DNA of 64,000 bases from Candidatus Bathyarchaeota archaeon (lineage in GTDB: Archaea > Thermoproteota > Bathyarchaeia > TCS64): the NCBI GenBank assembly GCA_963769425.1, contig CAVYLP010000001.1:1-64000 (forward strand), written 5' to 3'. Position numbers and translations under genes: made by a program. The notes below the pieces were generated by a model. It was not told the origin of the DNA. It was given only the letters and a program-made list of their open reading frames with translations, and did no database searches. Positions 3,817 through 63,197 of this stretch are shown piece after piece (the first letter of the stretch is position 1; each line of letters begins with the position of its first letter).

Positions 3817-4629
3817 TTGAGTAATCTATGCGACCTTCTTTTTGAGCTATCAAGCGAGGAACGCATGAAAATACTCAATATAATCAATATCAAACGAAGT
3901 AAGCTAACTCAAATTGCAAAGGCATTAGGGATTACCAATCAAGAGTGCAGTAGACACGTTTCTAGGTTAGTCATAGTAGGACTCGTCGAGAAAAAACCAG
4001 ATGGTAATTTTCAGACTACTCCTTATGCCAATCAAGTTATCATGCAACTCAAACCTCTTCATTTTTCCTTGCGTTATCGGAATTATTTCCTCGAACATAC
4101 AACGGAATGGATCCCTCCCGAATTTCAGATGAGACTGGGGGAGTTGAGTAAGTCTCAGCTTGTCGATGATGTTATGGTAGTCTTCAGGAACATTGAGAAA
4201 ATGTACGATGAGGCTGATTTGTACGTTCTCAGGGTAACGGACAGGTTTATGCTCACTACAATGCCCTCAGCCGATAAGGCGTTGAAGAGGGGTGTGACGC
4301 AACGAATGCTGGACCCGGAAGATATAGTTGTTCCCTCGGACTTCAAGAATACACCGAAATATGATGAAGCATTAGCGAATAGGCAGTTTATCAACCGCAG
4401 TATTACTCGCTGTGATTTCTTCCTAGCCATGTCAGAGAAGGTAGTGGCAGCCCTCAGTTTCCCACATATTGATGGGCGTTTTGACTATACGGGTCTAACA
4501 TCTGATGACCCCGATTTCATTAAATGGTGCGAGGACCTATTCGAGCACTATTGGACAGAATCAAAGAAAAAGAATTTTGACTGGCTTCCCAGAAAAATCG
4601 CTGAAAGTAAAAATAAAAAAAATAATTAA
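3817..4629 (+). CDS. Winged-HTH transcriptional regulator (ArsR-like N-terminus, DUF1724/FilR1-like C-terminus)
   Basis: LFELSSEERMKIL..SRHVSRLVIVGLV HTH; C-terminal SDDPDFIKWCEDLFEHYW typical of this archaeal family. Confidence 0.8.
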   Translation: MSNLCDLLFELSSEERMKILNIINIKRSKLTQIAKALGITNQECSRHVSRLVIVGLVEKKPDGNFQTTPYANQVIMQLKPLHFSLRYRNYFLEHTTEWIPPEFQMRLGELSKSQLVDDVMVVFRNIEKMYDEADLYVLRVTDRFMLTTMPSADKALKRGVTQRMLDPEDIVVPSDFKNTPKYDEALANRQFINRSITRCDFFLAMSEKVVAALSFPHIDGRFDYTGLTSDDPDFIKWCEDLFEHYWTESKKKNFDWLPRKIAESKNKKNN

Positions 4630-4775
4630 ATTACATGTAAAATGAAAAGCGAGCGCGCATAATTAATCTTAAATCCTCATGAAATATCATTACGAATTTT
4701 TTTCTCTTGATACCTCATTAGAAAACTGATGGCAAAGATGCGTGCACATGAGAAGCCCATACGATGTGAGATACT

Positions 4776-5927
4776 TTGAATTCTGATGGACCCCAGCAGA
4801 CAAAACCCTCGCAGGGTAGACTCCAGTTCATCGACTTCACACGCGGCATAATAATGGCGATCATGGCTTGGGACCACGTCGCAACCTTCTGGTGGCCCCA
4901 GCACTACGGAAGCGAGGGCCTCGGAGGACTCTTCCCATATCTGGGAGCCGACCTCCTGCCCTTCCTTTCAAGATTCATAACACACTTCTGCGCACCCACA
5001 TTCTTCTTCCTCTCCGGAACCTCGATAGCCATCTCCACCGCGAGGAAGCTTCAGAGGGGTGAGAGCCAAAAGGCGATCTCCCTCCACCTTGTGAAAAGGG
5101 CGGGGATATTAGTCCTCCTCATGGTCTTTATCGAGGGAAACGCCTTCGGACTCAGCCCAATCTACTTCGGCGTCCTCGGCTGCTTCGCAGCCTGCTTCAT
5201 AATATTCAGTGTTTTCAGGAGGCTCCCGTGGCAGATCATACTCACGATCTCCACAGCCATCGTCGTCTTCCATCCGCTACTTGACCTGAGCTTCCTCCCC
5301 AAAGATGGCATCGGGCTCCTCTTGAGACTCTATCTACATGAGCCGAGCTACAATTACTACCCGTTCCAGGTTCTCTACCCCATAATCCCATGGGTCGGCG
5401 TCATGGGACTAGGCTGGTGCCTCGGTGTATTCCTTAATCGCCTAGACAGAGAACAAATAAAGAGATTAGCGAAGCCAATCGCCCTGACGGGTGTCGGCTC
5501 AATATTCGCATTCATAGCAATCAGGTGGCTCAACGGTTATGGTAACCTAGTGCCCAGGAGTGGCAACACAATTCAATCCTGGCTGGCGGTCTCGAAGTAT
5601 CCCCCAGATCTAGCCTTCCTAACAATCACCCTCGGTGGTATGTGCTTCCTGTTGGCGCTAGGCATACAAATAGAGGATAAAAAGTGGTTTAACGGAGGAA
5701 TAATTGGCGCTCTGCTTGTCTTTGGCAGGAACCCCCTCTTCTTCTATGTCACCCACCTTGTCCTTTACAGGGTTCGCCCATTCTATATGACTACACCCCT
5801 TTTCACTATGGATCTATCCACCGTGGTCGTCTTCTGGTTTATTGGACTCGTAGTGTTGTGGAGGCTGTGCCTTAGATATGAGAAGTTTAAGAAATCTCAC
5901 CCCGAGTCGCTTCTACAATATATCTAA
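4776..5927 (+). CDS. DUF1624 / HGSNAT-like membrane acyltransferase-family protein
   Basis: RLQFIDFTRG..MAWDH, RFITHFCAPTFFFLSG, YPIIPW, KYPP motifs; multi-TM. Confidence 0.85.
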   Translation: MNSDGPQQTKPSQGRLQFIDFTRGIIMAIMAWDHVATFWWPQHYGSEGLGGLFPYLGADLLPFLSRFITHFCAPTFFFLSGTSIAISTARKLQRGESQKAISLHLVKRAGILVLLMVFIEGNAFGLSPIYFGVLGCFAACFIIFSVFRRLPWQIILTISTAIVVFHPLLDLSFLPKDGIGLLLRLYLHEPSYNYYPFQVLYPIIPWVGVMGLGWCLGVFLNRLDREQIKRLAKPIALTGVGSIFAFIAIRWLNGYGNLVPRSGNTIQSWLAVSKYPPDLAFLTITLGGMCFLLALGIQIEDKKWFNGGIIGALLVFGRNPLFFYVTHLVLYRVRPFYMTTPLFTMDLSTVVVFWFIGLVVLWRLCLRYEKFKKSHPESLLQYI

Positions 5928-50153: not shown

Positions 50154-52040
50154 CTACCGGTACTTCGCTATCGACTTCTCGAGGAAGCCGAGATCCAGCC
50201 GGTCGAGGGTCTCCTTCTTCGGGATGCCCCTCTCGTCCCAGCCGAGGGTGTCGAAGTATGTCTTCATCCGGATGTCCACCCTCTCCTTGTCGGTTGTCTT
50301 CCCCTTGAAGGGACCCGATGGGAGGGGCTCGTAGTACCTAGGCGGGTTCACGTCGTCCTTGATGGGCTCCCAGGTGAGGTCGGGTCCGCCCATGAGGAGG
50401 AACGCCTTCTGCAGGGTGGTTATCCTCGGGCCGTTTACCTTCCTCCAACCGGTGACCGTGATGGGGAAGCCGGTTACGGCCTTCGCGAAGTCGAACTGCA
50501 GGGCGAGGTTGGGACCCCGGGCCGTGAAGCTGCAGTAGACGGCGCAGTCGAAGTAGAGGTTGCCAGTCATGTCGTTGTAGCCGTCGGTCACGTTGGCCGT
50601 GTGGTCGCCCCCCTGGACGCTCGCGGCGTATGTCATGTCGTGTGTGTAGTCCGCGTCGCTCCGGGTGCCGTGAGCGCCTATCTCGATGCCCTTGACGTGG
50701 ACTACGTACTTGAGGACATCATCCTTCGGCAGCCCCTTCATCTCCGCGATCTTTATCGCGGCGCGGTAGCTGCCCTCGGCGAGGATGTCTCCGATGCCCT
50801 GCCTGTACGCCATCATGCGCGTCAGCTTGTCGAAGGCCTCAACGTCGCCCCACTCGAGCTTGAAGCCTATGTCCTCCTCCGTGAGGATACCGCGCTGGTA
50901 GAGCTCCGCAGCGAACCCCACGGTGTTCGCACCGTTGATGCCGCTGTGCCCCAGCTTGTCCATCAGCGTGCTCAGGTGGATGTTGTCGCCGGCGTCGTAG
51001 ATTCCGAAGTTCGTGCCGCAGTAGGCCTGCAGCTCGTAATCGGGGACGTCGGTTATATCTCCCTTCCATCTACCAGACTTTATACAGCTGACCTTCATGC
51101 AGTTCGTCGTGCAGTTGAAGTCTGCCCACTTGACCTTGACCCAGTAGCGGTCCATGTAGCGGTTTACGCCGAGCTCCTTGTCGTCGTGCCACTCCTCCTG
51201 CCAGTTCCTGATAGGCTCGCTACTCGTGCCCGCTCCGGCGCCGTAGCCCATGGCACCCGTGCCCCACCTGCGCATCGGGGACACGGCTATGAGGTCGGCG
51301 TGCACCTTTCTCCAGAGCACCTTCACGGTCTCCGGGGCGTCGACTGTGGGGAACTTGCCCCTGCTCTTTACGACGATGGCCTTGAGGTTCTTGCTCCCCA
51401 TGAGGGCGCCGTAGCCGCCGTATCCGCAGGCGTGACAGATCTTCGTGCAGACCGCCGAGTTGCGCACCATGTTCTCCCCCGCGGGGCCTATGTACATCGA
51501 GGCGGGCTCCTTCCAGAGGCCGACGCGGGGCATCTTCTTCGCGAGCGTGTCCCGAACCTCCTTGTTGAGCTCGATTACCGTCTCTTCGGAGTCCAAGCCC
51601 CAGAGGTGCTTTGCGTCAACGAGCTCGATGGATTCGTCAGTAATTAGGAGGTAGACAGGCGTCTCAGACTTGCCGGTGAAGATTATCCCGTCGTAGCCCG
51701 CGTCCTTAAGCTCTACAGCAGTCTCCGTAGCCGCGGTGCTACCAATTACGCTGTTGTTGGCGGGGCTCTTGCCGCTCACGCAGATGCGTGCGCCGGGGTA
51801 GATGCCCGTCATGGGGCCGGTCGCCACTATGAAGGGGTTCTCTGGGGCGAGAGAGTCAAGCTCGCTCCAGTGCTCACCTACCCTATCCCATAGGATCTTG
51901 GCCGCCATCCCCCTGCCGCCGAGGTACTGCTCAAGCATGCCACGTGGGAACGTGATCTTCTCGAAGCTGCCCTTGGTAAGGTCTACGTCGAGCCACTTGC
52001 CGGCGTATCCGCCGGGGATGTTGTCGCTGTTTCCGCTCAT
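50154..52040 (-). CDS. Tungsten-containing aldehyde:ferredoxin oxidoreductase family protein
   Basis: GYAGKWLDVDL, GGRG, GKSP, IGPAGEN, MGSKNLKAI, PDYE, LAEG; own ATG at 52040 with GAGGAGGT. Confidence 0.93.
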   Translation of the reverse strand: MSGNSDNIPGGYAGKWLDVDLTKGSFEKITFPRGMLEQYLGGRGMAAKILWDRVGEHWSELDSLAPENPFIVATGPMTGIYPGARICVSGKSPANNSVIGSTAATETAVELKDAGYDGIIFTGKSETPVYLLITDESIELVDAKHLWGLDSEETVIELNKEVRDTLAKKMPRVGLWKEPASMYIGPAGENMVRNSAVCTKICHACGYGGYGALMGSKNLKAIVVKSRGKFPTVDAPETVKVLWRKVHADLIAVSPMRRWGTGAMGYGAGAGTSSEPIRNWQEEWHDDKELGVNRYMDRYWVKVKWADFNCTTNCMKVSCIKSGRWKGDITDVPDYELQAYCGTNFGIYDAGDNIHLSTLMDKLGHSGINGANTVGFAAELYQRGILTEEDIGFKLEWGDVEAFDKLTRMMAYRQGIGDILAEGSYRAAIKIAEMKGLPKDDVLKYVVHVKGIEIGAHGTRSDADYTHDMTYAASVQGGDHTANVTDGYNDMTGNLYFDCAVYCSFTARGPNLALQFDFAKAVTGFPITVTGWRKVNGPRITTLQKAFLLMGGPDLTWEPIKDDVNPPRYYEPLPSGPFKGKTTDKERVDIRMKTYFDTLGWDERGIPKKETLDRLDLGFLEKSIAKYR

Positions 52041-52562
52041 TTGATTACCTCCTCGCCCTTCTCGCCGAACATCTTCACAGCTAGGTCCTTCGCCGTGTCG
52101 TAGGGGTTCCTGCTGTAGATCTTCCTGCTGTACGTTCGGGGGCTCATTGACAATGGTAAGGCAGTTGTAGCCCGCCTCTGTGCAGACCTCGACGCACTTG
52201 GGTTCCCCGTTGCAGAGGTCGCAGATGACCGCCTTGTTATCCCCCGGGTGGAGGTAGGGCACGGTCCCCGGGCACACCCTGATGCATGCCCCGCAGCTGA
52301 TGCATTTCGCGCGGTCGACGATGACAGCAGCCGTGTTGGGGTCCTTCGATAGAGCCTGTACCGGGCAGGAGGCTATGCAGGGGTAGTCCATGCACTGTGC
52401 GCAGAGGTGTGGCACCTCGACGCCGGGGAACGGCATGAAGACACGCACCCTTGAGGCGTCGGGCCACATCCACCCCTCGTGCTCGATGCTGCAGGCAAGC
52501 TCGCAACGCCTGCAGCCCGAGCAGTGCGAGGGGTCACGGGCGATCCATATCGGTTTCGGCAT
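52037..52562 (-). CDS. 4Fe-4S polyferredoxin subunit of the AOR; apparent +1 frameshift near 52130 creates a false fusion
   Basis: CSGCRRC..C, CAQC..C..CP, CISCGAC..CP, CDLC..C..C; corrected frame ends RKIYSRNPYDTAKDLAVKMFGEKGEEVIK* overlapping the AOR ATG. Confidence 0.88.
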
Positions 52563-52622: not shown

Positions 52623-53594
52623 TTACATGTTCCGGGCGGTGAAGAAGGCGACTAGGTCGAGGCACTTCTGTAGCTTCTTCTCCTTTGCGTAGTAGGTTAG
52701 AGCGGCTAAGGAGGCGCATGAGGCGGGGAGCACCGAGAGTCCCTCCTCGCGTTCTACTATCTCTGAGTATCTCAGCAGCTCACTGTCGGTGACTTGGGTG
52801 GCCCAGCCCCCGCTCTCCCAGAGGGCGTCGAGGGCTTCCTGCCCGTCTAGGCTAATCCAGCTAACGAGGGGTTCGTTATAGCTGGTTTCCGTGATCTCTT
52901 CAAGTCGAAGGTCTTCGATCTTCCTTTTCCCGGTAAGGAAGTTTGAGACTATTGGGTTCCCACCGCTCGTGCTTGCGGCTATGATTACTGTGTTTTTATC
53001 CGTCTTGCCGGCTTTCCTGAGGCTCTGGAATCCGTGGTTAATGCCAGCAAGGGTTGTACCGTTGCCCGTTGGGACGGCTAAGACGTCGGGAGCACGTCCC
53101 ATCCTCTCCACTATTTCGTATGCGATTGTGGCGTACGCCTCGATGGAGACGGCCCTGTTCTCGGGGGTGCCCGGGTTGGCGTTGTACCATCCCCGCCTAT
53201 TCGCCTCGGCGCCCGAGAACTCCACGACCTCCTCATAGGTGCCCGGGGCCCTGTGGATCACACCGCCCTTCCTCTCCATCTCAGCGATCCGTGGGGTGTG
53301 GTACTTCTCCGGGATGTAGACGTGCGTGGTGATGCCGAAGATCCGGGAGACGTGGACGAAGCTGGCGCCGAAGTTCCCGCATGAGGCGATGGCCAGCTCC
53401 CCAAAGCCTTTTTCCTTCGCCATTTTAAGGCATGAGTAAGCTGCTCGGTCCTTCATCGTCCCAGTCGGGTTACCGCCTTCAAATTTCAAGTAAATGTTGC
53501 CAAATCCGAGCAACTGTTCGAGATTGCGTGAACGTGTAAATATCGTGTCGCCGATCCCGTGTGCGATTAATTCTTCTTGTAACATTGCCGTCAA
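52623..53594 (-). CDS. PLP-dependent fold-type II enzyme, threonine-synthase-like
   Basis: LKFEGGNPTGTMKDR, ASCGNFG, VPTGNGT. Confidence 0.88.
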   Translation of the reverse strand: MTAMLQEELIAHGIGDTIFTRSRNLEQLLGFGNIYLKFEGGNPTGTMKDRAAYSCLKMAKEKGFGELAIASCGNFGASFVHVSRIFGITTHVYIPEKYHTPRIAEMERKGGVIHRAPGTYEEVVEFSGAEANRRGWYNANPGTPENRAVSIEAYATIAYEIVERMGRAPDVLAVPTGNGTTLAGINHGFQSLRKAGKTDKNTVIIAASTSGGNPIVSNFLTGKRKIEDLRLEEITETSYNEPLVSWISLDGQEALDALWESGGWATQVTDSELLRYSEIVEREEGLSVLPASCASLAALTYYAKEKKLQKCLDLVAFFTARNM

Positions 53595-53673
53595 GATCTG
53601 AATCTAACCTGATAGTAAGCAATAATAAGTAGCATTAATGATTATCGACTCTGGATAAGAAGTCCACGCAGGT

Positions 53674-55041
53674 ATGTGTATAGTGTCTAGCCTCTCTGTG
53701 GAAGCGAGACAGATCGAGACGGGTTATGAAATAAATCTCCGCGGGTCGCGGTATGTCGTAAAATATCCCAACGGCTTCTGGAAGAATTACCCCCAGGAGG
53801 CAAAGGATGTCTTATTCGACAACCTCGTATACGCAGAGACCGTCCATCTCCCCCTGACCCTCCGGAAGAGCGAGTTGAGGTACAACACCTCCGCCCCCTT
53901 CTTCCAGACCCAGTTTTTCCAGAACCTCTTGATGGACCTGCCTAGCTGCGCAGACGTAGACGGGACCAGAACGTCGGAACTCATCAAAGAGTTCATGAAC
54001 CTGAAGATCAAGTTCAACGACTACGACGTAAAGTTCCCAACCTACAAGCAGCCGAGCAGGGACGACAGCAGCGTCGTCGCCCTCAGCTTCGGTAAGGACA
54101 GCCTACTAACCTGGGCCGTCTGCCGCGAGCTCGGCCTCAACCCCCAGGCGGCTTACGTCGTGGAGCCCCTCCTCCTATATGAGGAGAAGCACAAGGACGT
54201 GCTCGCTAAGGAGTTCGAGAGCGAGTTCAAGGTGAAGCTGAACAAGATAATCCACACGACTGGCCACCTACGCGACGGCATACGCCTCGGTGTGGGTAAG
54301 ACTGAGATCGGCTGGGGCCTCCAGAACACTCAGTACGCCATGATGCTGCTTCCCATTGCCAACACGTTCCAGGCGAAGTACATCCTCTTCGGCAACGAGC
54401 AGAGCTGCAGCGAGTACTACTACGACAAGGAGGGCTTCATCTGCTACCCTGCCTTCGACCAGAGCCACAAGTGGACGGTGAACATCGACGTCATTACCCG
54501 CCTCCTGACGAATGGCGGCGTCCGCACGATGAGCGTCATCGAGCCCCTCAACGACATCGCCGTCGTCTACGCCCTTTACAAGAGGTACCCTGAGGTAGCA
54601 AAGTACCACATGAGTTGCTTCGTAGAGACCGAGGCCGGCCGCGACACGAGGTGGTGCATGAGCTGCAGCGTCTGCAGCAAGATGTACCTGCTCATCAAGG
54701 CGTGCGGCTTCGACCCCAAGACGGTCGGGCTCACGAAGAACATGCTCACTGAGGACTGCAAGGACTACTTCAGCCTCTTCGGCGGAAGCGACGTCAACAC
54801 CTACGCCTTAACGGGCAGGGGCCGCGACGAGCAACTCTTCGCATTCTACCTCGCGTGGAAGAATGGCGACAAGAGCCCACTCACTCAGGAGTTCGAGCAG
54901 AGGTTCCTAGACGAAGCGAAGGGCAGGGAGGACGAGCTCTACAAACTCTTCTTCGGCGTCCACGAGGCAATCACGATGCCCGAGAAGATCAAGAACGAGA
55001 CCCTCAGCATATACAAGGAGGTCCTTTCGGACGTCCCCTAG
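53674..55041 (+). CDS. PP-loop ATP-dependent protein resembling MurL peptidyl-glutamate epimerase
   Basis: LSFGKDS, FGNEQS, SVIEPL, HMSC, WCMSCSVC in MurL-like order and length (455 aa); family call recalled, not searched. Confidence 0.6.
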   Translation: MCIVSSLSVEARQIETGYEINLRGSRYVVKYPNGFWKNYPQEAKDVLFDNLVYAETVHLPLTLRKSELRYNTSAPFFQTQFFQNLLMDLPSCADVDGTRTSELIKEFMNLKIKFNDYDVKFPTYKQPSRDDSSVVALSFGKDSLLTWAVCRELGLNPQAAYVVEPLLLYEEKHKDVLAKEFESEFKVKLNKIIHTTGHLRDGIRLGVGKTEIGWGLQNTQYAMMLLPIANTFQAKYILFGNEQSCSEYYYDKEGFICYPAFDQSHKWTVNIDVITRLLTNGGVRTMSVIEPLNDIAVVYALYKRYPEVAKYHMSCFVETEAGRDTRWCMSCSVCSKMYLLIKACGFDPKTVGLTKNMLTEDCKDYFSLFGGSDVNTYALTGRGRDEQLFAFYLAWKNGDKSPLTQEFEQRFLDEAKGREDELYKLFFGVHEAITMPEKIKNETLSIYKEVLSDVP

Positions 55042-55051
55042 CCGCAGGAAG

Positions 55052-56050
55052 TTGAGAATCGCTTTTTGTTGTAACACTCGCCACGACAAGGGCGAGTTCC
55101 AAGTCGAGTACGAACCACAGCACACGATCGAGCTCGTGAAGCACGCCATCGAGGCCGCGGACTGGGAATATCTCCAGATCGAGGCCGACGAGACTTGCTT
55201 CGAAACCCTTCGCAGGGAGAAGCCGGACCTCGTCCTCAACAGAGCCGAGGGCATCCGTGGCGAGAGTAGGGAGAGCCATATCCCCTCCTTCTGTGAGATG
55301 CTTGGCATCCCCTACACGGGCGCGGGCGTCATGGCGACCGCTATCTGCCTCGACAAGCCCACGACGAAGAAGGTGCTAGAGTGGCACGGCATCAAGACCG
55401 CTCCCTTCATGGTACTCTTTGAAGAGGGCGACCCAATCGACCCCAAGCTCAGGTATCCCCTCATACTCAAGCCGAGCCACGAGGGCAGCAGCATCGGCAT
55501 CAACATCGACAACGTCGTCCACGACGAGAAGCAACTACGCAGAAAACTCAAGGAGATGCTTGGAGTTTACAAGCAGGGCATACTCGCGGAGGAGTTCATC
55601 GACGGGCGCGAGTTCAGCGTCGGCATAGTCGGCAACTTCATCGGCGAGGAGAAGCCCCGTATCCTACCCATCTTCGAGATGGACTTCAGCAAGTTCGCCC
55701 CCGAACTCGGCACCGTCCTCGGTCAGAAAGCCAAGACCATCTACGACTCGTCCGCCAACTACATCTGCCCCGCCAAGCTCCCAGCAAAGCTCAAGAGGGA
55801 GATAGAGGAGACGACGCTAAAAGCAGTGAAGGTCCTACAGTGCTATGATTGGGGCCGCCTAGACTACAGATACAACAGCCGTGGTGAGCTCTACTTCCTT
55901 GAGATCAATCCGCTCCCCGGCATAGACGCCGACGCGTCCGTCGACGACTTCAGCTTCTACCCCTTCATGTGGCTGCGGGGCGGCTGGAGCTTCGACGACA
56001 TGATACGCGAGGTCGTCGGCGCAGGTCTTAAGCGGTACGGCATCAAGTAG
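55052..56050 (+). CDS. D-Ala-D-Ala ligase-like ATP-grasp ligase
   Basis: IPYTG, CLDK, PLILKPSHEGSSIGI, EEFIDGREF, GRLDYR, LEINPLPG. Confidence 0.88.
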   Translation: MRIAFCCNTRHDKGEFQVEYEPQHTIELVKHAIEAADWEYLQIEADETCFETLRREKPDLVLNRAEGIRGESRESHIPSFCEMLGIPYTGAGVMATAICLDKPTTKKVLEWHGIKTAPFMVLFEEGDPIDPKLRYPLILKPSHEGSSIGINIDNVVHDEKQLRRKLKEMLGVYKQGILAEEFIDGREFSVGIVGNFIGEEKPRILPIFEMDFSKFAPELGTVLGQKAKTIYDSSANYICPAKLPAKLKREIEETTLKAVKVLQCYDWGRLDYRYNSRGELYFLEINPLPGIDADASVDDFSFYPFMWLRGGWSFDDMIREVVGAGLKRYGIK

Positions 56051-56057
56051 CTCCCCG

Positions 56058-56651
56058 ATGAGCGAGGAGCCGCCCTTTTTCGAGGAGGCGTCCAAGCGGG
56101 TAGAGGAGAGGCTGGGCACCCTCCTCGGGGAACCCGTCAAGATAAGCGTATACGTCTCCCTCAACAGAAAGCTGATCGACGAGATAATCAAGATAGAGTC
56201 AAACATGTTCCGGGACGAGCTAAGGTACAGCCTCTGGGAGCTGATGACGAGAAGTGAGAAGCCGGGTTTCGTCCTCATCATGGTGAGGCAAGATAGTGAG
56301 CCCCTCGCCTTCTTCTTCGGATACGAGGACCCCGAGCTCCCTGGCGGGTACTACGGGGACACGCTCGCGAGCATCGTCGAGGGGAAGGGGGTTGGGAGCA
56401 GCCTATTCGCCCTCGTCCATATCTACTGCTACGAGAACGGGTACAACCACTTCACCTGCCACACGGAGGAGGTGGATGAGAAGGGGAGGAAGCTCAGGGA
56501 CTGGTACATTGCTATGGGTATGGATTACATCAGCACAACCTCCGAGTACGGCGACCTGATGCGGGTCAGGCTCACCCCCGGCCACGCGAACTGGATGTAC
56601 CACCGTCACATACTTAGTGAGAAGCAATACAATAGGAACCCGGATCAATGA
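56058..56651 (+). CDS. GNAT-like acyltransferase
   Basis: DTLASIVEGKGVGSSL (motif A-like), WYIAMG. Confidence 0.6.
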   Translation: MSEEPPFFEEASKRVEERLGTLLGEPVKISVYVSLNRKLIDEIIKIESNMFRDELRYSLWELMTRSEKPGFVLIMVRQDSEPLAFFFGYEDPELPGGYYGDTLASIVEGKGVGSSLFALVHIYCYENGYNHFTCHTEEVDEKGRKLRDWYIAMGMDYISTTSEYGDLMRVRLTPGHANWMYHRHILSEKQYNRNPDQ

Positions 56652-56705
56652 GAATCATCGTTCCATGAAATAACACTTTTAACCGAATCAGCCTCCATCT
56701 GCTTC

Positions 56706-57152
56706 ATGCTGTACTTTTCATATGGTTCCTTTCTAGACTCGGAGATGCTGAGGAAGCACTGCCCTAATGCTAAGTACATTGGTAGAGCTACTTTACCAAA
56801 CTGGGAATTACAGTTCAATTTCCTGAGCCGTACATATAATGGCGGCGTGACTGGAGTTGAACCAGCAGTTGCCAAACTCGTTAGGGGAGTTCTATATGAG
56901 GTCTCTAATGAGGAACTACTTCACCTCGATACAATCGAGGGAATTCCTGAAGGGATCTATTATAGGCAGACAATTTATGTCGTAGACGAATTTGGGAAAC
57001 CTGTTAAAACAGCTACTTATAGGACGACCAATCCCAAAGGACCCTTCAAACCTACGAAGAGATACGTCGGACTCATGATTAGTGGGGCTAAGGAGCACCG
57101 TCTCGACTCCGACTATGTCAAGGAACTTGAAGCCATCGAGACCATCGATTAG
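56706..57152 (+). CDS. Gamma-glutamylcyclotransferase (AIG2-like)
   Basis: YFSYGS, VRGVLYEV, LDTIEG, PTKRY..GAKEH. Confidence 0.9.
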   Translation: MLYFSYGSFLDSEMLRKHCPNAKYIGRATLPNWELQFNFLSRTYNGGVTGVEPAVAKLVRGVLYEVSNEELLHLDTIEGIPEGIYYRQTIYVVDEFGKPVKTATYRTTNPKGPFKPTKRYVGLMISGAKEHRLDSDYVKELEAIETID

Positions 57153-57431: not shown

Positions 57432-59008
57432 TTAAAGGCCCTTGTGGAACAGGATCTTCCCGTTCACGATCGTCATATAGACCTTCGCCTCCCGAATATT
57501 CTCGGGCTTCATCTCGGTCAAATCACGATCGATGACCGCCACGTCGGCGAGCTTTCCCGGTTCGATACTTCCTTTGAGGTCCTCCTCGAAGCTTGCGTAG
57601 GCACCGTTCAGGGTGTAACACCTTATCGCTTCTGTCAACTTGATACGCGCGTCCTTTATGCCGTGGTTGACCGCGCTCCAGACGCCGTAGATCGGGTGGA
57701 ACGGCATGCCGTCGCTGCCGAATGCGATGGTTATCCCCTCATCGATCATTATCCTGTAGGGGTTGTTGAGACGGTTTCTCTCCTTCCCCAGGCGCTGCTC
57801 GTACATGCTCCCCGGGCCCGCCCACTCGCCGACGAAGTTGGGCTGAACAGCTGGTATGATTCCCAGCTCCTTGATGCGCTCTATCTGCCCAGCCGTGAGA
57901 ATCTCACAGTGCTCGATGCGGTGGCGGTGATCCTTCCTAGGAGTATCCTTGATGGCGGCCTGGATGCTGTTGATAACGCATTCAATCGCGTAGTCGCCGA
58001 TGGCGTGGATCGCCAGCTGGTTACCGTGCCTGTGGGCCGCTATCGCCTTCTCATCCAGCACCTCGGGCGGCATGATCAGTAATCCCTTCGAAGAAGGCTC
58101 ATCCGTGTACGGCTCGAAGAGCGCCGCCGTCCTCGCACCTAGACTACCATCCATCAGCAACTTCGTCGGCCCGATCTTGATCATATCGTTGCCGAAGCCG
58201 GTTCGTATCCCCATCTCATAGCTCTGCTTCTGGATGGTCTCGTTAAGGAAGAGGTAGGCACGGACCTTAAGGTACCCTTTGGCGAGCGCCGTCTGGTAGG
58301 CCTTGAGGGCGTCCCCGCCGAGCCCGGCGTCGCCTATGCTCGTGCAGCCGAGGCTCAGCGCGTACTCGGAGGCAATCTTCAGCCCCTCGACGGCGGTCTC
58401 CTCAGTGACCGGCGGGATGAATGGCTCGATCAAGTGGCGGCAGTCTCTCAGGATGCCGGTTGGTTCGCCGTCGGAACCCATGTCTATTTGACCCCCATCA
58501 GGCTGCTTCGTTTTCCTGGTAATACCCGCTATCTTGAGCGCTGGTGTGTTTAGCGTCAGCAGGTGGCCGCAGATGCGTACCACTATGATGGGATGCACCT
58601 TGCTAACGGCGTCGAGGTCCTCCCTCGTGGGGTATCTGTTCTCGGGCCACTTGGATTCGTCCCAGCCCTTACCGATTATCCACTCGCCCTTCTTAGTCGT
58701 CTTTGCCTTCTCCTTCAGCCGCGCCATCGCGGCCTCTAGGGTGGGCGGGTCACGGAGCTGGACATCACGTATCATCGAGATTCCCATCCCGTAGAAGTGG
58801 CAGTGGCTGTCGATGAACCCCGGCACGACCGTCATGCCGGAGACGTCGTAGACCTCGGCCCCCTTAGGGATCTCGATCTTCCCCTTCTTTCCCGCGGCTA
58901 GGATGTAGTCGCCTTGCATCAAAACGATGCTGTCTTTGATTGGCGGACGGCCCGTTCCGTCGATTAGTGTGCCGCCCGTCAGAACTCTTGGACAAGGTTC
59001 CAGGGACA
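57432..59008 (-). CDS. Amidohydrolase (YtcJ-like); exact start uncertain
   Basis: PGFIDSHCH, KLLMDGSLGARTA, IHAIGD, RHRIEH, FGSD, GSIEPGKLAD. Confidence 0.92.
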
Positions 59009-59115
59009 ATACTGTCGTTGGACTCCTTGTGCATAGCGCGCGGGTATTGGAATATAAATCATTGGGGAGGGACCTCATCGGATTATCCCTCGCGGAATAG
59101 TTAGATAATCCTAGC

Positions 59116-59994
59116 TTATCCGGCGCTTAGGTAGCCGCTTAGCATTAAATTAAGCGTCTGCACAATCGCCACTACGACGAAGTCCTTCGCCAGCACTTTG
59201 CCTAACTCAAGCAACCGGTTGATGTCTCGGGAGCCAAGAATCTTCCTACTCAACCATAGGCGCAGAGAGACGAATGCAGTGAGTGTGAAGAGGATAACAT
59301 AGAAAACCATTGGAAGATTAAACATCACCCCGACAAGCAGCATTAGGGGCAGGAGTGCGTAGCCCAGTGCTATGGTTAACATCATCCCCAGACGAGGTCC
59401 GAAGACGATGTGAACGGTCCTCGCCCCGCTCTTGAGGTCGGGTTCATAATCCGCTAGATCCTCCCAGAGGCTGTTCACGGCGGTTGTGGTTCCTATCACC
59501 GTTACAAGCACCAGAACGCTGGGATAGGTGGCGCCAGCGAAAGCGGCGACGATGAGAACTGGGACAGCCCCGACAGTGAAGTTCACTACAGGTTTCCATA
59601 GTGTCTGCCTGAGCCTAAAGGGTGGAACAGAGTAGAGCACACCGAAGAAGATGCCCACCACGACCCAGAAGACCACGTAGATCGACGTCGTCAGCACCCC
59701 CAGCAGTGATGATAGGGCACATAGCCCAAGTGCTACTGGCAAACCCAGCTCACCGAGTCTTCTCGTGAACTCAGCTCTGGACGGGTGGGAAAGGATGTCG
59801 AGCTCCTTGTCGAAGACGTTGTTCAGTGCGTCGACGCCGCTCCACCCGAGGAACACGATAACCCCGAGGTAGGAGGCCTGGTTCCACGCGCCCGAGTCGA
59901 GCATGAGGAAGGCTGCGCCGACGGCGATGGCGAATACCATCACGCCCCTCTCCGCGGATATGAATTTGGCGAACCCCCGCAACCCACGGAGCAT
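59116..59994 (-). CDS. UbiA family prenyltransferase
   Basis: NNVFDKELD, LYSVPPFRLR, EDLADYEPDLKSGART; multi-TM. Confidence 0.9.
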   Translation of the reverse strand: MLRGLRGFAKFISAERGVMVFAIAVGAAFLMLDSGAWNQASYLGVIVFLGWSGVDALNNVFDKELDILSHPSRAEFTRRLGELGLPVALGLCALSSLLGVLTTSIYVVFWVVVGIFFGVLYSVPPFRLRQTLWKPVVNFTVGAVPVLIVAAFAGATYPSVLVLVTVIGTTTAVNSLWEDLADYEPDLKSGARTVHIVFGPRLGMMLTIALGYALLPLMLLVGVMFNLPMVFYVILFTLTAFVSLRLWLSRKILGSRDINRLLELGKVLAKDFVVVAIVQTLNLMLSGYLSAG

Positions 59995-60062: not shown

Positions 60063-61196
60063 TTAGCCGACCGTGACGATCCCAGTCGTGTACTTCTTTA
60101 TCGCGGCCTCGTTGAGCTCGAACCCGAGCCCAGGCCCCTTCGGCGCCTCTATGTAGCCCTTCTCGAGCTTCACGGGCTCCTTGATCACGTCCTCGTTGAA
60201 CCACTCGGGGAAGCCTGAGAGCTCGCACTTCTGGGTTATCGCCTTCCCGCACCCGGCTATGATATGGGACGCGGCGGAGAGGCTCACACCCATCTCGAGG
60301 TCATCGTGCATGAGGGTCGGGATGTTCATCACCCTCGCCATGTCGAGTATCCTCTTCACGTTCGTTATCCCGCCGGCGGGGCGGTAGGTCTTCAGTCCGA
60401 GCACGCCAATTGCTCCCATGTCGATGAGAGTCTTAACGTCCGCCATCGAGAAGAGTGACTCGTGGGGCATGATGGGGGTGTCTACGGAGCCAGCGACCTT
60501 CGCCAGGGTGGCGAAGTCCCACCAGACGGTGGGCTGCTCCACTAGCTCCACGTCGTACTGCTCGATCTCCCTGATCATCTTGATCACGTCGGAGGCCCCG
60601 TAGCCCTGGTTGCAGTCAACGCGGAGGATAACGTCCTCACCGATGGCTTCCCTCATCGCCTTGACACATGATACGTCCCGCTTCGGCCCTATCTTGAGGC
60701 GGATGCCCGTGTACCCCTCCTTGACGAGGCGCTTACCCTCGGCGGCCACCTTCGCAGGGGTGTCGATCCCTATGAGGGCGACGTTCGGTATCTTCGATGG
60801 GTTCGAGCCTCCCCCTAGGAGCTTGTAGACTGGGACGTTGAGGCTCCTGCCCATTATATCCCATAGGGCCATATCCACCGCGGCCTTCGCCATGGGGTAG
60901 GTTGGGGCCCAGTAGTCCATCTTCTCCCAGACCCCGTCGAGGTCGAAGGGGTCCATGCCCATTATGTTCGGCGCAATCCAGCGCCTGATCATCTCCGTGA
61001 CCACTGCCTGGTTCTCCGGCGAGAGCGGGGGGAGCGGGGGACACTCTCCCACCCCGGAGATACCCTCGTCCGTGTGGACGCGGGCAAGGATGAACTCGAA
61101 GGGCATCCCCTCCCCCAGCTTCCCGTATCGAGAGAGGGCGAGGACCTTCTTCTTCTGCAGATTAATAGGTATGATCTCAACCTTCGTTATCTTCAA
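60063..61196 (-). CDS. Enolase-superfamily (mandelate racemase / muconate lactonizing-like) enzyme with atypical active site
   Basis: TDEGISGVGE, KAAVDMALWD..PVYKLLGG, RLKIG, VDCNQ, VEQP, PHES, GPGLG. Confidence 0.88.
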   Translation of the reverse strand: MKITKVEIIPINLQKKKVLALSRYGKLGEGMPFEFILARVHTDEGISGVGECPPLPPLSPENQAVVTEMIRRWIAPNIMGMDPFDLDGVWEKMDYWAPTYPMAKAAVDMALWDIMGRSLNVPVYKLLGGGSNPSKIPNVALIGIDTPAKVAAEGKRLVKEGYTGIRLKIGPKRDVSCVKAMREAIGEDVILRVDCNQGYGASDVIKMIREIEQYDVELVEQPTVWWDFATLAKVAGSVDTPIMPHESLFSMADVKTLIDMGAIGVLGLKTYRPAGGITNVKRILDMARVMNIPTLMHDDLEMGVSLSAASHIIAGCGKAITQKCELSGFPEWFNEDVIKEPVKLEKGYIEAPKGPGLGFELNEAAIKKYTTGIVTVG

Positions 61197-61245
61197 GCAG
61201 GAACACGACCGTATCCAATGCGGCTCCACTTGTTGATGAGGTTTT

Positions 61246-61950
61246 TCAGTGGGTCAGGCTTAGGAAGTTCTCAATGAGCAGGTCGGCCAGTCGCCTCATT
61301 TCGGGCTCCCGCTCCCTGCACTCGTTGAGGACCTGCTCGCGGGTCTTCCCGACAGCCACAAGCTCCTCAGGATAGGCGGAGGCCCACCTCTCCGCTTCAA
61401 TGTGGTTTATCTCAAGGTGGAAGATGATACCCCGCACGTTCCTCCAAGCGTAGGCCTGGATAGGGCATGGGTCACCTCGTGCCAGAAGCCTACCCCCCAG
61501 CGGGACCTTGAACATGTCGCTGTGCCAGTGGAATACGGGCACCTCGCGGGGGAAGCCATTGAAGAGTGGGTCGGCGATACCATCGTCTGTCAGGGTGACT
61601 GTGTAACCTCCGACCTCCTTCCTCGGGCTCCTCACGACCTCGGCGCCGAGCAGTCGCGCGAGTATCTGCCCACCGCAACACACTCCAAGCACAGGTTTAC
61701 CACTCCCCATAACCCTTGAGAGGTACTCCCACTCCTTTGTCAGGAACCTGTGTTTGTTGACGTCGTTGGCTGAGATAGGTGTGGGGCCCACGACGAATGC
61801 CGAATATTTCTCGGTCCCCGGGAACGCCTCCGCAGCCATTGAGTAGGCATGGACTAAATCCACGTCGGCTCGTTCCCTTAGGAACTCCTCGTAGAGGCCG
61901 AGGTTCTCCGTGGCGTCGTTCTGTATAATGAGCACCCTGCTCGGCTCCAT
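61246..61950 (-). CDS. Class I glutamine amidotransferase-like protein
   Basis: PVLGVCCGGQ nucleophile elbow, FHWHSD, FHLE. Confidence 0.88.
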   Translation of the reverse strand: MEPSRVLIIQNDATENLGLYEEFLRERADVDLVHAYSMAAEAFPGTEKYSAFVVGPTPISANDVNKHRFLTKEWEYLSRVMGSGKPVLGVCCGGQILARLLGAEVVRSPRKEVGGYTVTLTDDGIADPLFNGFPREVPVFHWHSDMFKVPLGGRLLARGDPCPIQAYAWRNVRGIIFHLEINHIEAERWASAYPEELVAVGKTREQVLNECREREPEMRRLADLLIENFLSLTH

Positions 61951-62030
61951 GTTGGTTAATCGTCGCCTCGGTTTAAAATGGGTTCGAGGGAAGGCAACCG
62001 ATATTGGGAGGAGAGGTAGGAGTCTCAGCC

Positions 62031-63197
62031 ATGGATGAGCGCACCACGATGCCCATCTGGGCGGAGGTAGACCTCGACGCCCTCGCCCATAATATACGGG
62101 AGGTCAGACGCCTCACATCGGCGAACTCGATGATATTGGCGGCCGTCAAGGCGGATGCGTACGGCCACGGGGCTGTGATATCCTCCAAGGTCTTCCTCGA
62201 TAACGGAGCGGATAGGCTCGGTGTCGCCAGGCTCGGGGAGGCTGTGGAGCTAAGGGACGCAGGTATAGAGGCGCCGATCCTCAACCTAGGCTACACCCCC
62301 GAGGCCCAGTACGGAACTCTAATCGGGAGAGGCATCGCGGCGACCATCTACACATTCCTTCAGGCTCAGGCTCTCGACGATGTCGCGGCAAAGCTCCACA
62401 CTAAGGCCGTCGTTCACGTCAAGATCGATACCGGGATGAATCGCCTGGGGTTCCAGCCTAACGACGAAACCCTAAGGGCGATAGCCAAGATCAACGTACT
62501 TCCCAACGTGGAGCTTGAGGGCATTTACACCCACTTCGCCGTCTCCGACATCGCCGACAAGACGTACACCCGCCGACAGTTCGAGCTATTCAGGTGGGTT
62601 CTGGACGAACTCAGGACGAGGGGCGTCGAGCCCCCCATTAGGCACGTCTCCAACAGCGCCGCTATAATCGACCTCCCCGAGTACGCCCTCGAAATGGTCC
62701 GCCCTGGTATCATGCTCTACGGATACGAGCCAAGCATCGAAGTTGACCTCAGTCGGGTGAGCCTAAAGCCTGCGATGACACTTAAGGCGCGTCTATCAAA
62801 CGTCAAGGTCGTGCCCGAGGGAGCGGGTATAAGCTACGGACTCACCTACACGACGAAGCGCCCGAGCATCATCGGTACCCTCCCCGTCGGCTATGCTGAT
62901 GGTTACAGGAGGGGTCTTTCCAACAGGAGCTGGGTCGATTACGGGGGCGAGAGGGCGCCTATAGTGGGGCGCGTCTGCATGGACCAGTGCATGATAGACT
63001 TGACAGACATTGACATGGCCGAGATTGGCGACGAGGTCACCCTATTCGGGGGCGGGTGCTCGCCGAGCGTCGAGGAGACGGCGAGGATGCTTGACACCAT
63101 ACCGCATGAGGTGACTTGCGCCATAGCCCGCCGCGTTCCACGAGTATATCTTAAATCGGGTAGGGTCACCGAGACACGTGACTACCTAGAGGGATAG
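62031..63197 (+). CDS. alr: Alanine racemase (bacterial type)
   Basis: AVKADAYGHG PLP Lys, KIDTGMNRLG, HVSNSAA, VRPGIMLYG, ISYG, GYADG, GRVCMDQ. Confidence 0.95.
   Translation: MDERTTMPIWAEVDLDALAHNIREVRRLTSANSMILAAVKADAYGHGAVISSKVFLDNGADRLGVARLGEAVELRDAGIEAPILNLGYTPEAQYGTLIGRGIAATIYTFLQAQALDDVAAKLHTKAVVHVKIDTGMNRLGFQPNDETLRAIAKINVLPNVELEGIYTHFAVSDIADKTYTRRQFELFRWVLDELRTRGVEPPIRHVSNSAAIIDLPEYALEMVRPGIMLYGYEPSIEVDLSRVSLKPAMTLKARLSNVKVVPEGAGISYGLTYTTKRPSIIGTLPVGYADGYRRGLSNRSWVDYGGERAPIVGRVCMDQCMIDLTDIDMAEIGDEVTLFGGGCSPSVEETARMLDTIPHEVTCAIARRVPRVYLKSGRVTETRDYLEG

Follow-up and report, generated by a model that had tools for sequence, protein, structure and literature searches.

A MurL-related gene module of Bathyarchaeia and Asgard archaea as a candidate pathway for a small nonribosomal peptide

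Introduction

What does an archaeon make with a distant relative of MurL, an epimerase of bacterial peptidoglycan synthesis, when the gene for it stands beside one for a relative of D-Ala-D-Ala ligase (Ddl)? The question is raised by a five-gene cluster at positions 52623 to 57152 of the first 64,000 nucleotides (nt) of contig CAVYLP010000001.1, from a Candidatus Bathyarchaeota archaeon; this whole stretch is referred to below as the window. We propose that three, and usually four, of these genes form a module that makes a small nonribosomal peptide, most simply a dipeptide, and that the MurL-family enzyme adenylates the C-terminal carboxylate of this peptide, with conversion of the residue from L to D as the likeliest outcome. 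We place the probability of this reading at about 0.4.

As described in two reviews, MurL has so far been seen solely in the peptidoglycan synthesis of some bacteria, and how it works has yet to be settled (PMC8788868, PMC5808125). According to the same reviews, MurL needs ATP and Mg2+ and releases AMP, and adenylation of the α-carboxylate has been proposed (PMC8788868, PMC5808125), while its epimerization of the C-terminal residue is given as unidirectional, from L to D (PMC5808125).

Results

Layout and conservation of the gene cluster

An original prediction, made from the sequence of the window, had described five open reading frames (ORFs), the gaps between them, and their families, and all of these are borne out by the ORF list together with Pfam, NCBIfam, and profile matches. 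On the minus strand lies a gene for a ThrC-like pyridoxal phosphate (PLP) enzyme of fold type II (323 amino acids [aa], 52623 to 53594). A 79-nt AT-rich stretch (53595 to 53673), presumed to hold the promoters of both flanking genes, separates it from four genes on the plus strand. These are predicted to encode a MurL-family PP-loop ATP pyrophosphatase (455 aa, 53674 to 55041), a Ddl-type ATP-grasp ligase (332 aa, 55052 to 56050), a GNAT N-acetyltransferase (197 aa, 56058 to 56651), and a γ-glutamylcyclotransferase/AIG2-like protein (GGCT; 148 aa, 56706 to 57152), with gaps of 10, 7, and 54 nt between them.

One genome per species was scanned for relatives of the PP-loop gene, and from 105 confirmed relatives we kept the best 80 loci, which come from Bathyarchaeia, Thor-, Heimdall-, Hod-, Hermod-, Borr-, and Promethearchaeota, and Nitrososphaeria. 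Loci nearly identical to that of the window (99%) bear the label Candidatus Bathyarchaeota, in line with its lineage. Neighboring genes were counted by tblastn with the window proteins, only at loci whose contig leaves room for them, and in bands set by the identity of the PP-loop protein (at least 90%, 60 to 89%, and below 60%). The Ddl-type ligase is linked to the PP-loop gene in 74 of 75 such loci (12/12, 26/26, and 36/37 in the three bands), the ThrC-like PLP gene in 61 of 62 (10/10, 20/20, and 31/32), and the GNAT gene in 66 of 73 (12/12, 21/25, and 33/36). Recurrence in 80 loci of different species puts this arrangement far beyond chance. The original prediction had turned on whether these genes keep company in other genomes, and they do.

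The counts also redraw the boundaries of the unit. The PLP gene, earlier taken for a mere divergent neighbor, belongs to the core and occurs in three arrangements: among the 80 loci it lies upstream and divergent in 37, upstream on the same strand in 6, and downstream and convergent in 32, and it was not found in 5. The GNAT gene, which a family hidden Markov model (HMM) places at 65 of the 80 loci, is usual in the unit and not obligate. The GGCT gene drops out, as it is linked in only 13 of 69 such loci, all but one of these being in the highest band (12/12, 1/23, and 0/34). The obligate core is thus the PLP, PP-loop, and ligase genes, with GNAT as a frequent fourth and GGCT as an addition in this genus. 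The original prediction had read the cluster as one that builds, epimerizes, acylates, and recycles a small, possibly glutamyl peptide. We retain the small peptide; since GGCT is confined to close kin, the words "recycles" and "possibly glutamyl" draw on a single lineage, and we find no support for them in the unit as a whole. When all 1213 ORFs called in the 80 loci were clustered, no further family appeared in more than 21 of them.

Gene fusions tie the members together as well. Ligase and GNAT are fused in three genomes (L039, L040, and L041), and at one locus (L076) the PP-loop protein and the ligase share a single 803-aa frame. A search for longer proteins found no fused PP-loop form above 797 aa, which is weak evidence, and with no second long form found, the 803-aa frame may reflect either an uncommon fusion or faulty assembly.

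Two other observations concern single loci. At L053 (positions 3885 to 4788), from a bathyarchaeote, the ligase gene is broken into frames of 82 and 162 aa and no GNAT gene was found, the PP-loop and PLP genes appearing intact; here the module may be in decay. The archaeal module also occurs in bins labeled Actinomycetota (locus L054, genome G001), Krumholzibacteriaceae (L019, G002), and Patescibacteria (L031, G003). On another contig, G001 carries a bacterial dcw-like cluster with murC in two adjoining frames (279 and 204 bits), and the three bins are probably mixed.

The PP-loop protein is a distant homolog of MurL

The 455-aa PP-loop protein has no Pfam match at an E value of 0.1 or less, and its sole NCBIfam match is to MurL, at 24.9 bits, with residues 111 to 361 on model positions 118 to 359 of 447. 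The cutoff of this model (700 bits) is tuned to the Xanthomonadales. Orthologs of MurL from another phylum, that of one of the mixed bins, in which 15 of 401 genomes match the model, score 80 to 474 bits and so also fall below the cutoff, and they adjoin Mur ligases. Within the PP-loop family, 21 of 24 members match MurL (best E value, 2.3e-10), two match WbuX (TIGR03573), and three match PRK13795, whereas none matches the NCBIfam models of QueC (E of 0.01 or less) or the asparagine synthetase models; the window protein itself matches neither PF06508 nor TIGR00364. Five of ten distant representatives also match MurL weakly (15 to 31 bits), one of these together with two PRK "hypothetical protein" models, and direct HMM scores between MurL and the family are 12 to 21 bits. 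A search against PDB sequences gave nothing significant, TtuA appearing at an E value of 0.07 with the single sequence and 0.31 with the profile.

We then compared whole profiles, using 13 of the MurL orthologs from that phylum rather than Xanthomonadales MurL itself. The ORF adjoining the ortholog is a Mur ligase in 7 of 7 tested cases, twice with a MurD-like N domain, and these are therefore MurD2/MurL-type pairs such as the reviews describe. Aligned by hhalign, the PP-loop family and the orthologs give a probability of 95.5% (E value, 1.6e-8; 262 columns; 20% identity), with GGGxDS, NE.SA, SCN, and WCGxCxKC of MurL matched in the same order by SFGKDS, GNEQSC, MSCF, and WCxxCxxC of the family. 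A control profile of seven QueC sequences from relatives gave 8.8% with the PP-loop family and 25.8% with MurL. The motif order GKDS, NE, SC, and WCxxCxxC, which the original prediction had ascribed to MurL, is present in real MurL orthologs and invariant in an alignment of 24 family members.

In that alignment, the PP-loop motif S138-F-G-K-D-S143 (54085 to 54102, plus strand) is invariant but for the F position, and S138, G140, K141, D142, S143, and all four Cys of the cluster C315-x12-C328-x2-C331-x2-C334 (54616 to 54675, plus strand) are invariant in the 24 sequences. Invariant or nearly so are the segments S138-x-G-K-D-S143, Y169-E-E-K-H-K174, E211-x-G-W-G-L-Q217, G240-N-E-Q243, D262-Q-x-H265, I289-E-P-L292, M313-S-C-F316, and W327-C-x2-C-x2-C334. 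The family is large and very conserved, and it is annotated only as "hypothetical." A first sequence search returned 334 clusters at 90% identity, and a profile search returned 564 representatives (50% identity) at an E value of 1e-3 or less, 170 of them at 1e-30 or less. Named members come from Bathyarchaeota, Aigarchaeota, and Thor-, Heimdall-, Hod-, and Promethearchaeota, and one distant representative comes from a Mariprofundaceae bacterium. In a FastTree phylogeny, MurL appears to lie on a very long branch, followed by deep representatives, the paralog from the same genome, and L075, and all ligase-linked PP-loop genes appear to fall in one last clade. In the ESM Atlas, which we use only for leads, a MurL family set is common to 27 of the 30 nearest clusters, and one of the three top-ranked clusters is dominated by Bathyarchaeota. 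A Bathyarchaeota-dominated cluster is also listed there in which 20% of the members carry MurL_N (PF26299) and MurL_epimerase_C (PF26298).

Taken together, the profiles indicate that the PP-loop protein is a genuine but very distant homolog of MurL, and that its family stands beside MurL as a sister group within the QueC-like PP-loop fold. A grouping with QueC, which would have told against the original prediction, did not emerge from them. The label "MurL-like" holds as a statement of homology, but at the level of the superfamily only, given the low identity and score and the replacement of blocks that are conserved in MurL (see Discussion); epimerase activity is therefore something that we infer.

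Four MurL orthologs (L107, L114, L119, and L120) lie in very long frames, of 817 to 947 aa within the loci and 858 to 1140 aa by search. These lengths could reflect high G+C content or a fusion with the upstream gene.

The predicted fold keeps amide-forming chemistry in play

An AlphaFold (AF2) model of the PP-loop protein (predicted local distance difference test [pLDDT], 91; predicted template modeling score [pTM], 0.91) divides it into an N-terminal domain (about residues 1 to 120), a QueC-like Rossmann core (about 128 to 350), and a C-terminal helical domain. Foldseek ranks QatC first (E value, 2e-5, about full length), followed by QueC (3.8e-4; TMt, 0.69) and Cap9. With VIA-align, the model reaches Z scores of 15.0 (204 residues aligned; root mean square deviation, 3.1) and 14.9 against QueC, 14.2 and 14.0 against QatC (315 to 326 residues aligned, model residues 3 to 406), and 14.0 against Cap9, with ThiI, LarE, TtuA, and TilS lower at about 9 to 11; QatC is the only solved structure that VIA-align matches near full length, N-terminal extension included. 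The four Cys, which align with SCN...WCGxCxKC of the MurL orthologs and with SCY...HCGxCESC of QueC, probably bind Zn. In the portion of the source that treats the QueC family, the loop is SGGxDS and the zinc site is C(x)8CxxCxxC, with C(x)19 in QatC (PMC13329287), and the SFGKDS loop and C(x)12CxxCxxC spacing of our family are variants of these. By its VIA-align and Foldseek matches, the model has a QueC-type Rossmann fold. The original prediction had named QueC as its main alternative, and the outcome is divided: sequence profiles speak against it, and the fold and the four-Cys site speak for it. Since MurL and the PP-loop family are sister groups within one QueC-like fold, the two options are nested rather than exclusive.

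With such a fold and Cys site, amide-forming chemistry stays a live rival to epimerization, and it is the main one. In this case the PP-loop enzyme would adenylate the peptide carboxylate and ammonia would attack it, giving an amide or nitrile, with a product such as an N-acetyl-dipeptide amide that might act, for example, as a compatible solute. The portions of the sources that bear on this describe the QueC family as acting through ATP-dependent activation of a carboxylate (PMC13329287, PMC13279940), QueC as using ATP and ammonia to turn a carboxylate first into an amide and later into a nitrile (PMC13329287), and the pathway to N-acetylglutaminylglutamine amide (NAGGN) as acetylation and ligation by Ngg, then amidation of the C terminus by AsnO (PMC8070244). 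NAGGN synthesis is a precedent for an N-acetyl dipeptide made by a GNAT, an ATP-grasp ligase, and an ATP-dependent enzyme that modifies the C terminus. The absence of MurL-specific conserved blocks from the PP-loop family also fits an amide-forming enzyme. So do the ligase-GNAT fusions at three loci, which resemble Ngg, a protein that we take to combine an N-acetyltransferase and an ATP-grasp ligase. However, both profile comparisons favor MurL over QueC, the family lacks matches to asparagine synthetases, and the PP-loop enzyme has no glutaminase domain. A stand-alone gene for a GATase lies nearby only in close kin (9 of 9 loci in the band of at least 90% identity, and 0 of 40 beyond it), and the peat and sediment habitat is not obviously a setting of osmotic stress, although this last argument is a weak one. 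We regard amidation as unlikely, though less so than any of the alternatives that follow.

The near-full-length match to QatC raises a second alternative, namely, that a macromolecule is the target, whether by conjugation of a carboxylate to a protein amine, as in Cap9 and QatC, or by action on a protein C terminus, a tRNA, or a nucleoside. QueC-family enzymes of CBASS and Qat systems do target protein N termini, as far as the relevant part of the source goes (PMC13279940). Our loci give little to extend the analogy: neither the PP-loop protein nor the ligase or the PLP enzyme matches a PADLOC defense model, the clustering of the 80 loci yielded no conserved candidate for a substrate protein, and the GNAT lacks an N-terminal glycine motif. 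The partner enzymes (PLP, Ddl-type, and GNAT) are, moreover, of types that handle small molecules, and modification of a macromolecule seems improbable.

Other adenylation chemistries are compatible with the same superfamily, such as formation of an acetamidine, as by N-acetyl-sugar amidotransferases of the WbuX/PseA type, or insertion of sulfur through an Fe-S cluster, as in LarE or TtuA. The two TIGR03573 matches, an N-acetyl sugar amidotransferase (8wex) at Foldseek rank 47, structural neighbors LarE, TtuA, and NcsA at a Z score of about 10, and the four invariant Cys can all be cited for them. These signals are far weaker than those for MurL (21/24) and for QueC and QatC (Z scores of 14 to 15), and no gene for a sulfur carrier is conserved nearby in the 80 loci. 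The Cys spacing fits the QueC/QatC Zn site rather than the three-Cys Fe-S motif of LarE, as the latter is given in the pertinent part of the source (PMC13329287). We consider such chemistries very unlikely.

Partner enzymes fit a proposed small-peptide synthesis outside the cell wall

The ligase matches PF07478 (Dala_Dala_lig_C) at 118 bits against a cutoff of 24 and is the sole match to that family in the genome, but it scores below every Ddl cutoff of NCBIfam (best NF002378, 176.1 bits; cutoff, 243). Its alignment with Escherichia coli DdlB begins at residue 74. The catalytic EGSS is retained, as are R and D in GxGRxD and E and N in LExN; a Thr stands opposite the Tyr of DdlB A-K-Y, and the C-terminal loop has six inserted residues ahead of an S-F pair, which is aligned with S-L of DdlB. 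We take the acceptor carboxylate in DdlB to be held by the R of GxGRxD and the S of the S-L pair, both of which are kept here, and the Tyr of the K-Y pair is presumably a residue of the substrate site. The N-terminal region of DdlB, with its N-terminal Glu, we assume to bind the first, or donor, D-Ala, and the corresponding region of this ligase cannot be aligned to it. The ligase family has instead an invariant N-terminal signature of its own, NTR..EF.VEY..NR.EG.RG.SRES, made up of N8-T-R10, E15-F, E19, N63-R-x-E-G, and G70-x-S-R-E-S75.

The PLP enzyme matches Pfam PALP (182 bits) and, above its cutoff of 266 bits, the "threonine synthase" model NF004996 (PRK06381; 349.8 bits), whereas TIGR00260 thrC gives only 75 to 76 bits, far below its cutoff of 167. 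The lysine of its PLP motif NPTGTxKDR (K48) is invariant, and so is C72-G73-N74, which replaces STGN of ThrC; the loop reads (S/T)CGN(F/Y/L)G, with the Cys invariant, where ThrC has STGNTS. Three other genes of the genome exceed the thrC cutoff (267, 197, and 189 bits). Because of this Cys loop and these three genes, the module enzyme appears from its sequence not to be the housekeeping threonine synthase. The ESM Atlas returned only generic PALP clusters for it.

The 197-aa protein matches Pfam weakly as a single sequence (E value, 0.04; 14.5 bits against a cutoff of 22). A profile of 17 sequences, in contrast, finds 57 PDB sequences at an E value of 1 or less, nearly all of them GNAT-type acetyltransferases (best 8a9o, 9e-7), and the family conserves DTxA..GKGxG, GKG(I/V)G, and FYE..GF. 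The GKG(I/V)G motif fits Q/R-x-x-G-x-G/A, which we take to be the acetyl coenzyme A motif of GNATs, and we assign the protein to the GNATs by these profile and motif matches. The GGCT exceeds the cutoffs of both PF13772 (AIG2_2; 61.3 against 27 bits) and PF06094 (GGACT; 38.2 against 22.8 bits).

Could the module nevertheless serve a true cell wall, by making a stem peptide of the peptidoglycan or pseudomurein type? Ddl-type and MurL-type enzymes are cell wall enzymes in bacteria, and an alanine racemase is encoded 5 kb downstream of the module. The original prediction had noted that the window holds no Mur ligases, and this extends to the genome (2.55 Mb, 6 contigs, 91% complete), where a search gave a pair of Mur_ligase_M genes, located on a different contig, and no others. 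Both are FolC (364 and 359 bits; cutoff, 163), and neither comes near the cutoff of the pMurC/D/E and MurC-F models. The genome is thus without MurC to MurF, with no search having been made for MurA or MurB, and it follows that the module does not belong to peptidoglycan synthesis. The sub-cutoff score and unalignable N terminus of the ligase, and a racemase that is not conserved with the module, point the same way, and a cell wall function is extremely improbable.

Distribution and surroundings of the module

The module is present in 17 of 17 sampled genomes of its own genus and 25 of 36 of its own family, in 0 of 24 genomes sampled from other families within the order and class, and in 6 of 301 genomes when the phylum is sampled evenly. 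The same genome holds a paralog of the PP-loop protein on contig C6 of G000 (463 aa; 35% identity; E value, 1e-100; L088, 7813 to 9204, minus strand), with a P-loop variant, SGKES, and with GNE.SC, MSCF, and WCxxCxxC kept. No ligase lies near it; its neighbors encode proteins of 167 and 279 aa, which have no Pfam match, and an SDR. Within the genus, both copies are present in most genomes.

Downstream of the module, the window encodes on the minus strand an amidohydrolase (57432 to 59078), a UbiA-type prenyltransferase (59116 to 59994), an enolase-superfamily enzyme (60063 to 61229), and a class-I GATase-like protein (61246 to 61950), followed on the plus strand by the alanine racemase (62004 to 63197; TIGR00492, 382 bits against a cutoff of 168). 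The enolase-superfamily enzyme has subthreshold matches to muconate cycloisomerase, L-Ala-D/L-Glu epimerase (109 bits), and N-acetyl-D-Glu racemase (80 bits). These genes look like ones of D-amino-acid or peptide metabolism, syntenic only in close kin.

Their position after the module and GGCT in this genus suggests a further alternative, in which the enzymes salvage or break down D-amino-acid peptides from bacterial necromass, for example by inverting imported peptides from D to L. The amidohydrolase, enolase-family, GATase, and alanine racemase genes are, however, essentially confined to the band of at least 90% identity: in more distant loci with room they occur in 0 of 52, 1 of 44, 0 of 40, and 1 of 38 cases, respectively. 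An ATP-grasp ligase is, besides, a biosynthetic enzyme. The L-to-D direction reported for MurL, in the part of the review that covers it, also runs opposite to salvage (PMC5808125). We find this alternative quite unlikely, about on a par with macromolecule modification.

Directly upstream of the PLP gene lies a gene for an 802-aa protein (50154 to 52562, minus strand), about 140 N-terminal residues of which match polyferredoxin-type Fe-S proteins and residues 183 to 425 of which match aldehyde:ferredoxin oxidoreductase. Judged by these matches, it looks like a fusion of the two, and it adjoins the module in only some close relatives. The G+C content of the window ranges from 0.44 to 0.61 in 2-kb windows, and the first 24 kb are mostly lower than the region of the module.

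Occurrence in environmental data

The stretch is present in sequencing runs labeled as peat and sediment metagenomes. A single study provided two RNA libraries, whose assembled contigs are mostly 90 to 95% alike to the window and probably stem from relatives. They cover the PP-loop, ligase, and GNAT genes and leave uncovered most of the PLP gene and the GGCT gene; assembled contigs of this kind give no proof of a transcript and no view of where it ends or on which strand it lies. One contig bridges the PP-loop and ligase genes (X23 record 12) and another the ligase and GNAT genes (X24 record 21), a weak hint that the three genes are cotranscribed.

Discussion

A proposed small peptide altered at its C terminus

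The pairing of a peptide ligase with a MurL-family enzyme follows the logic of MurD2 and MurL, and on this ground, among others, we favor the synthesis of a small nonribosomal peptide. The PLP enzyme would supply or tailor one of its amino acid building blocks. The ATP-grasp ligase would convert a carboxylate to an acyl phosphate and join it to the amine of an α-amino acid, so that the free carboxylate of this acceptor residue becomes the C terminus of the peptide. Using its PP-loop, the MurL-family enzyme would then adenylate the C-terminal α-carboxylate (ATP to AMP and pyrophosphate) near the four-Cys, probably Zn-binding, site; the activated N-acyl residue would be inverted from L to D and the adenylate hydrolyzed, as in MurL. 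Finally, the GNAT would place an acetyl group on the free amino group. For the product we infer a role as a compatible solute, as a decoration of the envelope or its glycans, or as a metabolite, and the substrates and the order of the steps are likewise our proposal. The more specific claim, that archaea free of murein, many Asgard lineages and Bathyarchaeia among them, make a small, usually N-acetylated peptide with a D residue by ATP-driven epimerization after ligation and with no racemase, through a deeply diverged MurL-family enzyme that works with a Ddl-type ligase and a PLP enzyme dedicated to the task, is more doubtful than the reading as a whole, although we would still rank it above amidation.

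Several observations weigh against this reading. The kinship to MurL is remote (20% identity, and 12 to 31 bits by HMM), the first 90 or so residues of the PP-loop protein cannot be aligned to MurL, and NGHVP, NHQxSK, and PFECVG of the 13 MurL orthologs are replaced in the hhalign alignment by ELGWGLQ, YDQSH, and FSLFGG; because of these replacements and the unalignable N terminus, the residues needed for epimerization may be absent. The nearest solved folds, QueC, Cap9, and QatC, form amides and not epimers. The GNAT gene is missing beside an otherwise intact module with room for it at no fewer than five loci (L020, L023, L032, L042, and L068). The paralog sits without a ligase, so members of the PP-loop family do not always act on the product of one. 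The module is accessory, and its patchy distribution means that the product is not essential. Finally, carry-over of DNA could account for the RNA-library contigs, one of which (X24 record 15) runs across the divergent promoter region.

What the module would add, and its place among known systems

Whichever chemistry applies, MurL gains a large sister family of 564 representatives, and in one clade of that family, found in Bathyarchaeia and Asgard archaea, the gene is firmly tied to those for a Ddl-type ligase and a PLP enzyme. Four genes that are called "hypothetical" or misnamed ("threonine synthase," "D-Ala-D-Ala ligase") can now be tested as one pathway, in sediment archaea that are abundant and for the most part uncultured, and on either reading they caution against annotating the module as cell wall or threonine biosynthesis. 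If the enzyme is an epimerase, archaea would have a new route to D residues, and MurL chemistry could be studied in a small-molecule system. With a D-peptide as the product, MurL-type chemistry would for the first time extend beyond peptidoglycan, and for the first time to archaea, and a new class of archaeal metabolite would be defined. If the enzyme forms an amide, the product would be a new metabolite of the N-acetyl-dipeptide-amide type. The literature that we searched gave no account of an archaeal MurL-like module; supplements lay outside its scope, and the neighborhood tables of PMC13329287 might touch on related clusters.

Compared with Ddl, the ligase shares the C-terminal ATP-grasp domain and the catalytic residues. 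It differs in its N-terminal signature, in the Thr for Tyr, in the insertion in the C-terminal loop, and in its sub-cutoff score, and its host genome is without MurF. The QueC, Cap9, and QatC enzymes offer the best structural match and share the PP-loop, a four-Cys site after an "SC," and the chemistry of carboxylate adenylation. Unlike them, the archaeal protein has no match to the QueC models and little profile similarity to QueC, its Cys site is spaced as C(x)12 where theirs have C(x)8 or C(x)19, and it matches no PADLOC defense model. NAGGN synthesis in Sinorhizobium and Pseudomonas is alike by enzyme logic, with an N-acetyltransferase and an ATP-grasp ligase followed by an ATP-dependent enzyme acting on the C-terminal residue, but here the third enzyme is of the MurL family and without a glutaminase domain, not an amidotransferase of the asparagine synthetase type, and a PLP enzyme is added.

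The remaining comparison is with MurD2 and MurL. The PP-loop enzymes are homologous, have their motifs in the same order, and are of similar length (455 aa against a model of 447 positions), and in both systems the PP-loop enzyme adjoins an ATP-dependent ligase that forms peptide bonds. In the archaeal module a Ddl-type ATP-grasp enzyme takes the place of the Mur ligase, and the set is enlarged by a PLP enzyme and a GNAT. The host has no MurC to MurF, and the substrate cannot be UDP-MurNAc-dipeptide. The module varies, in archaea, the theme of a ligase paired with a MurL-family enzyme.

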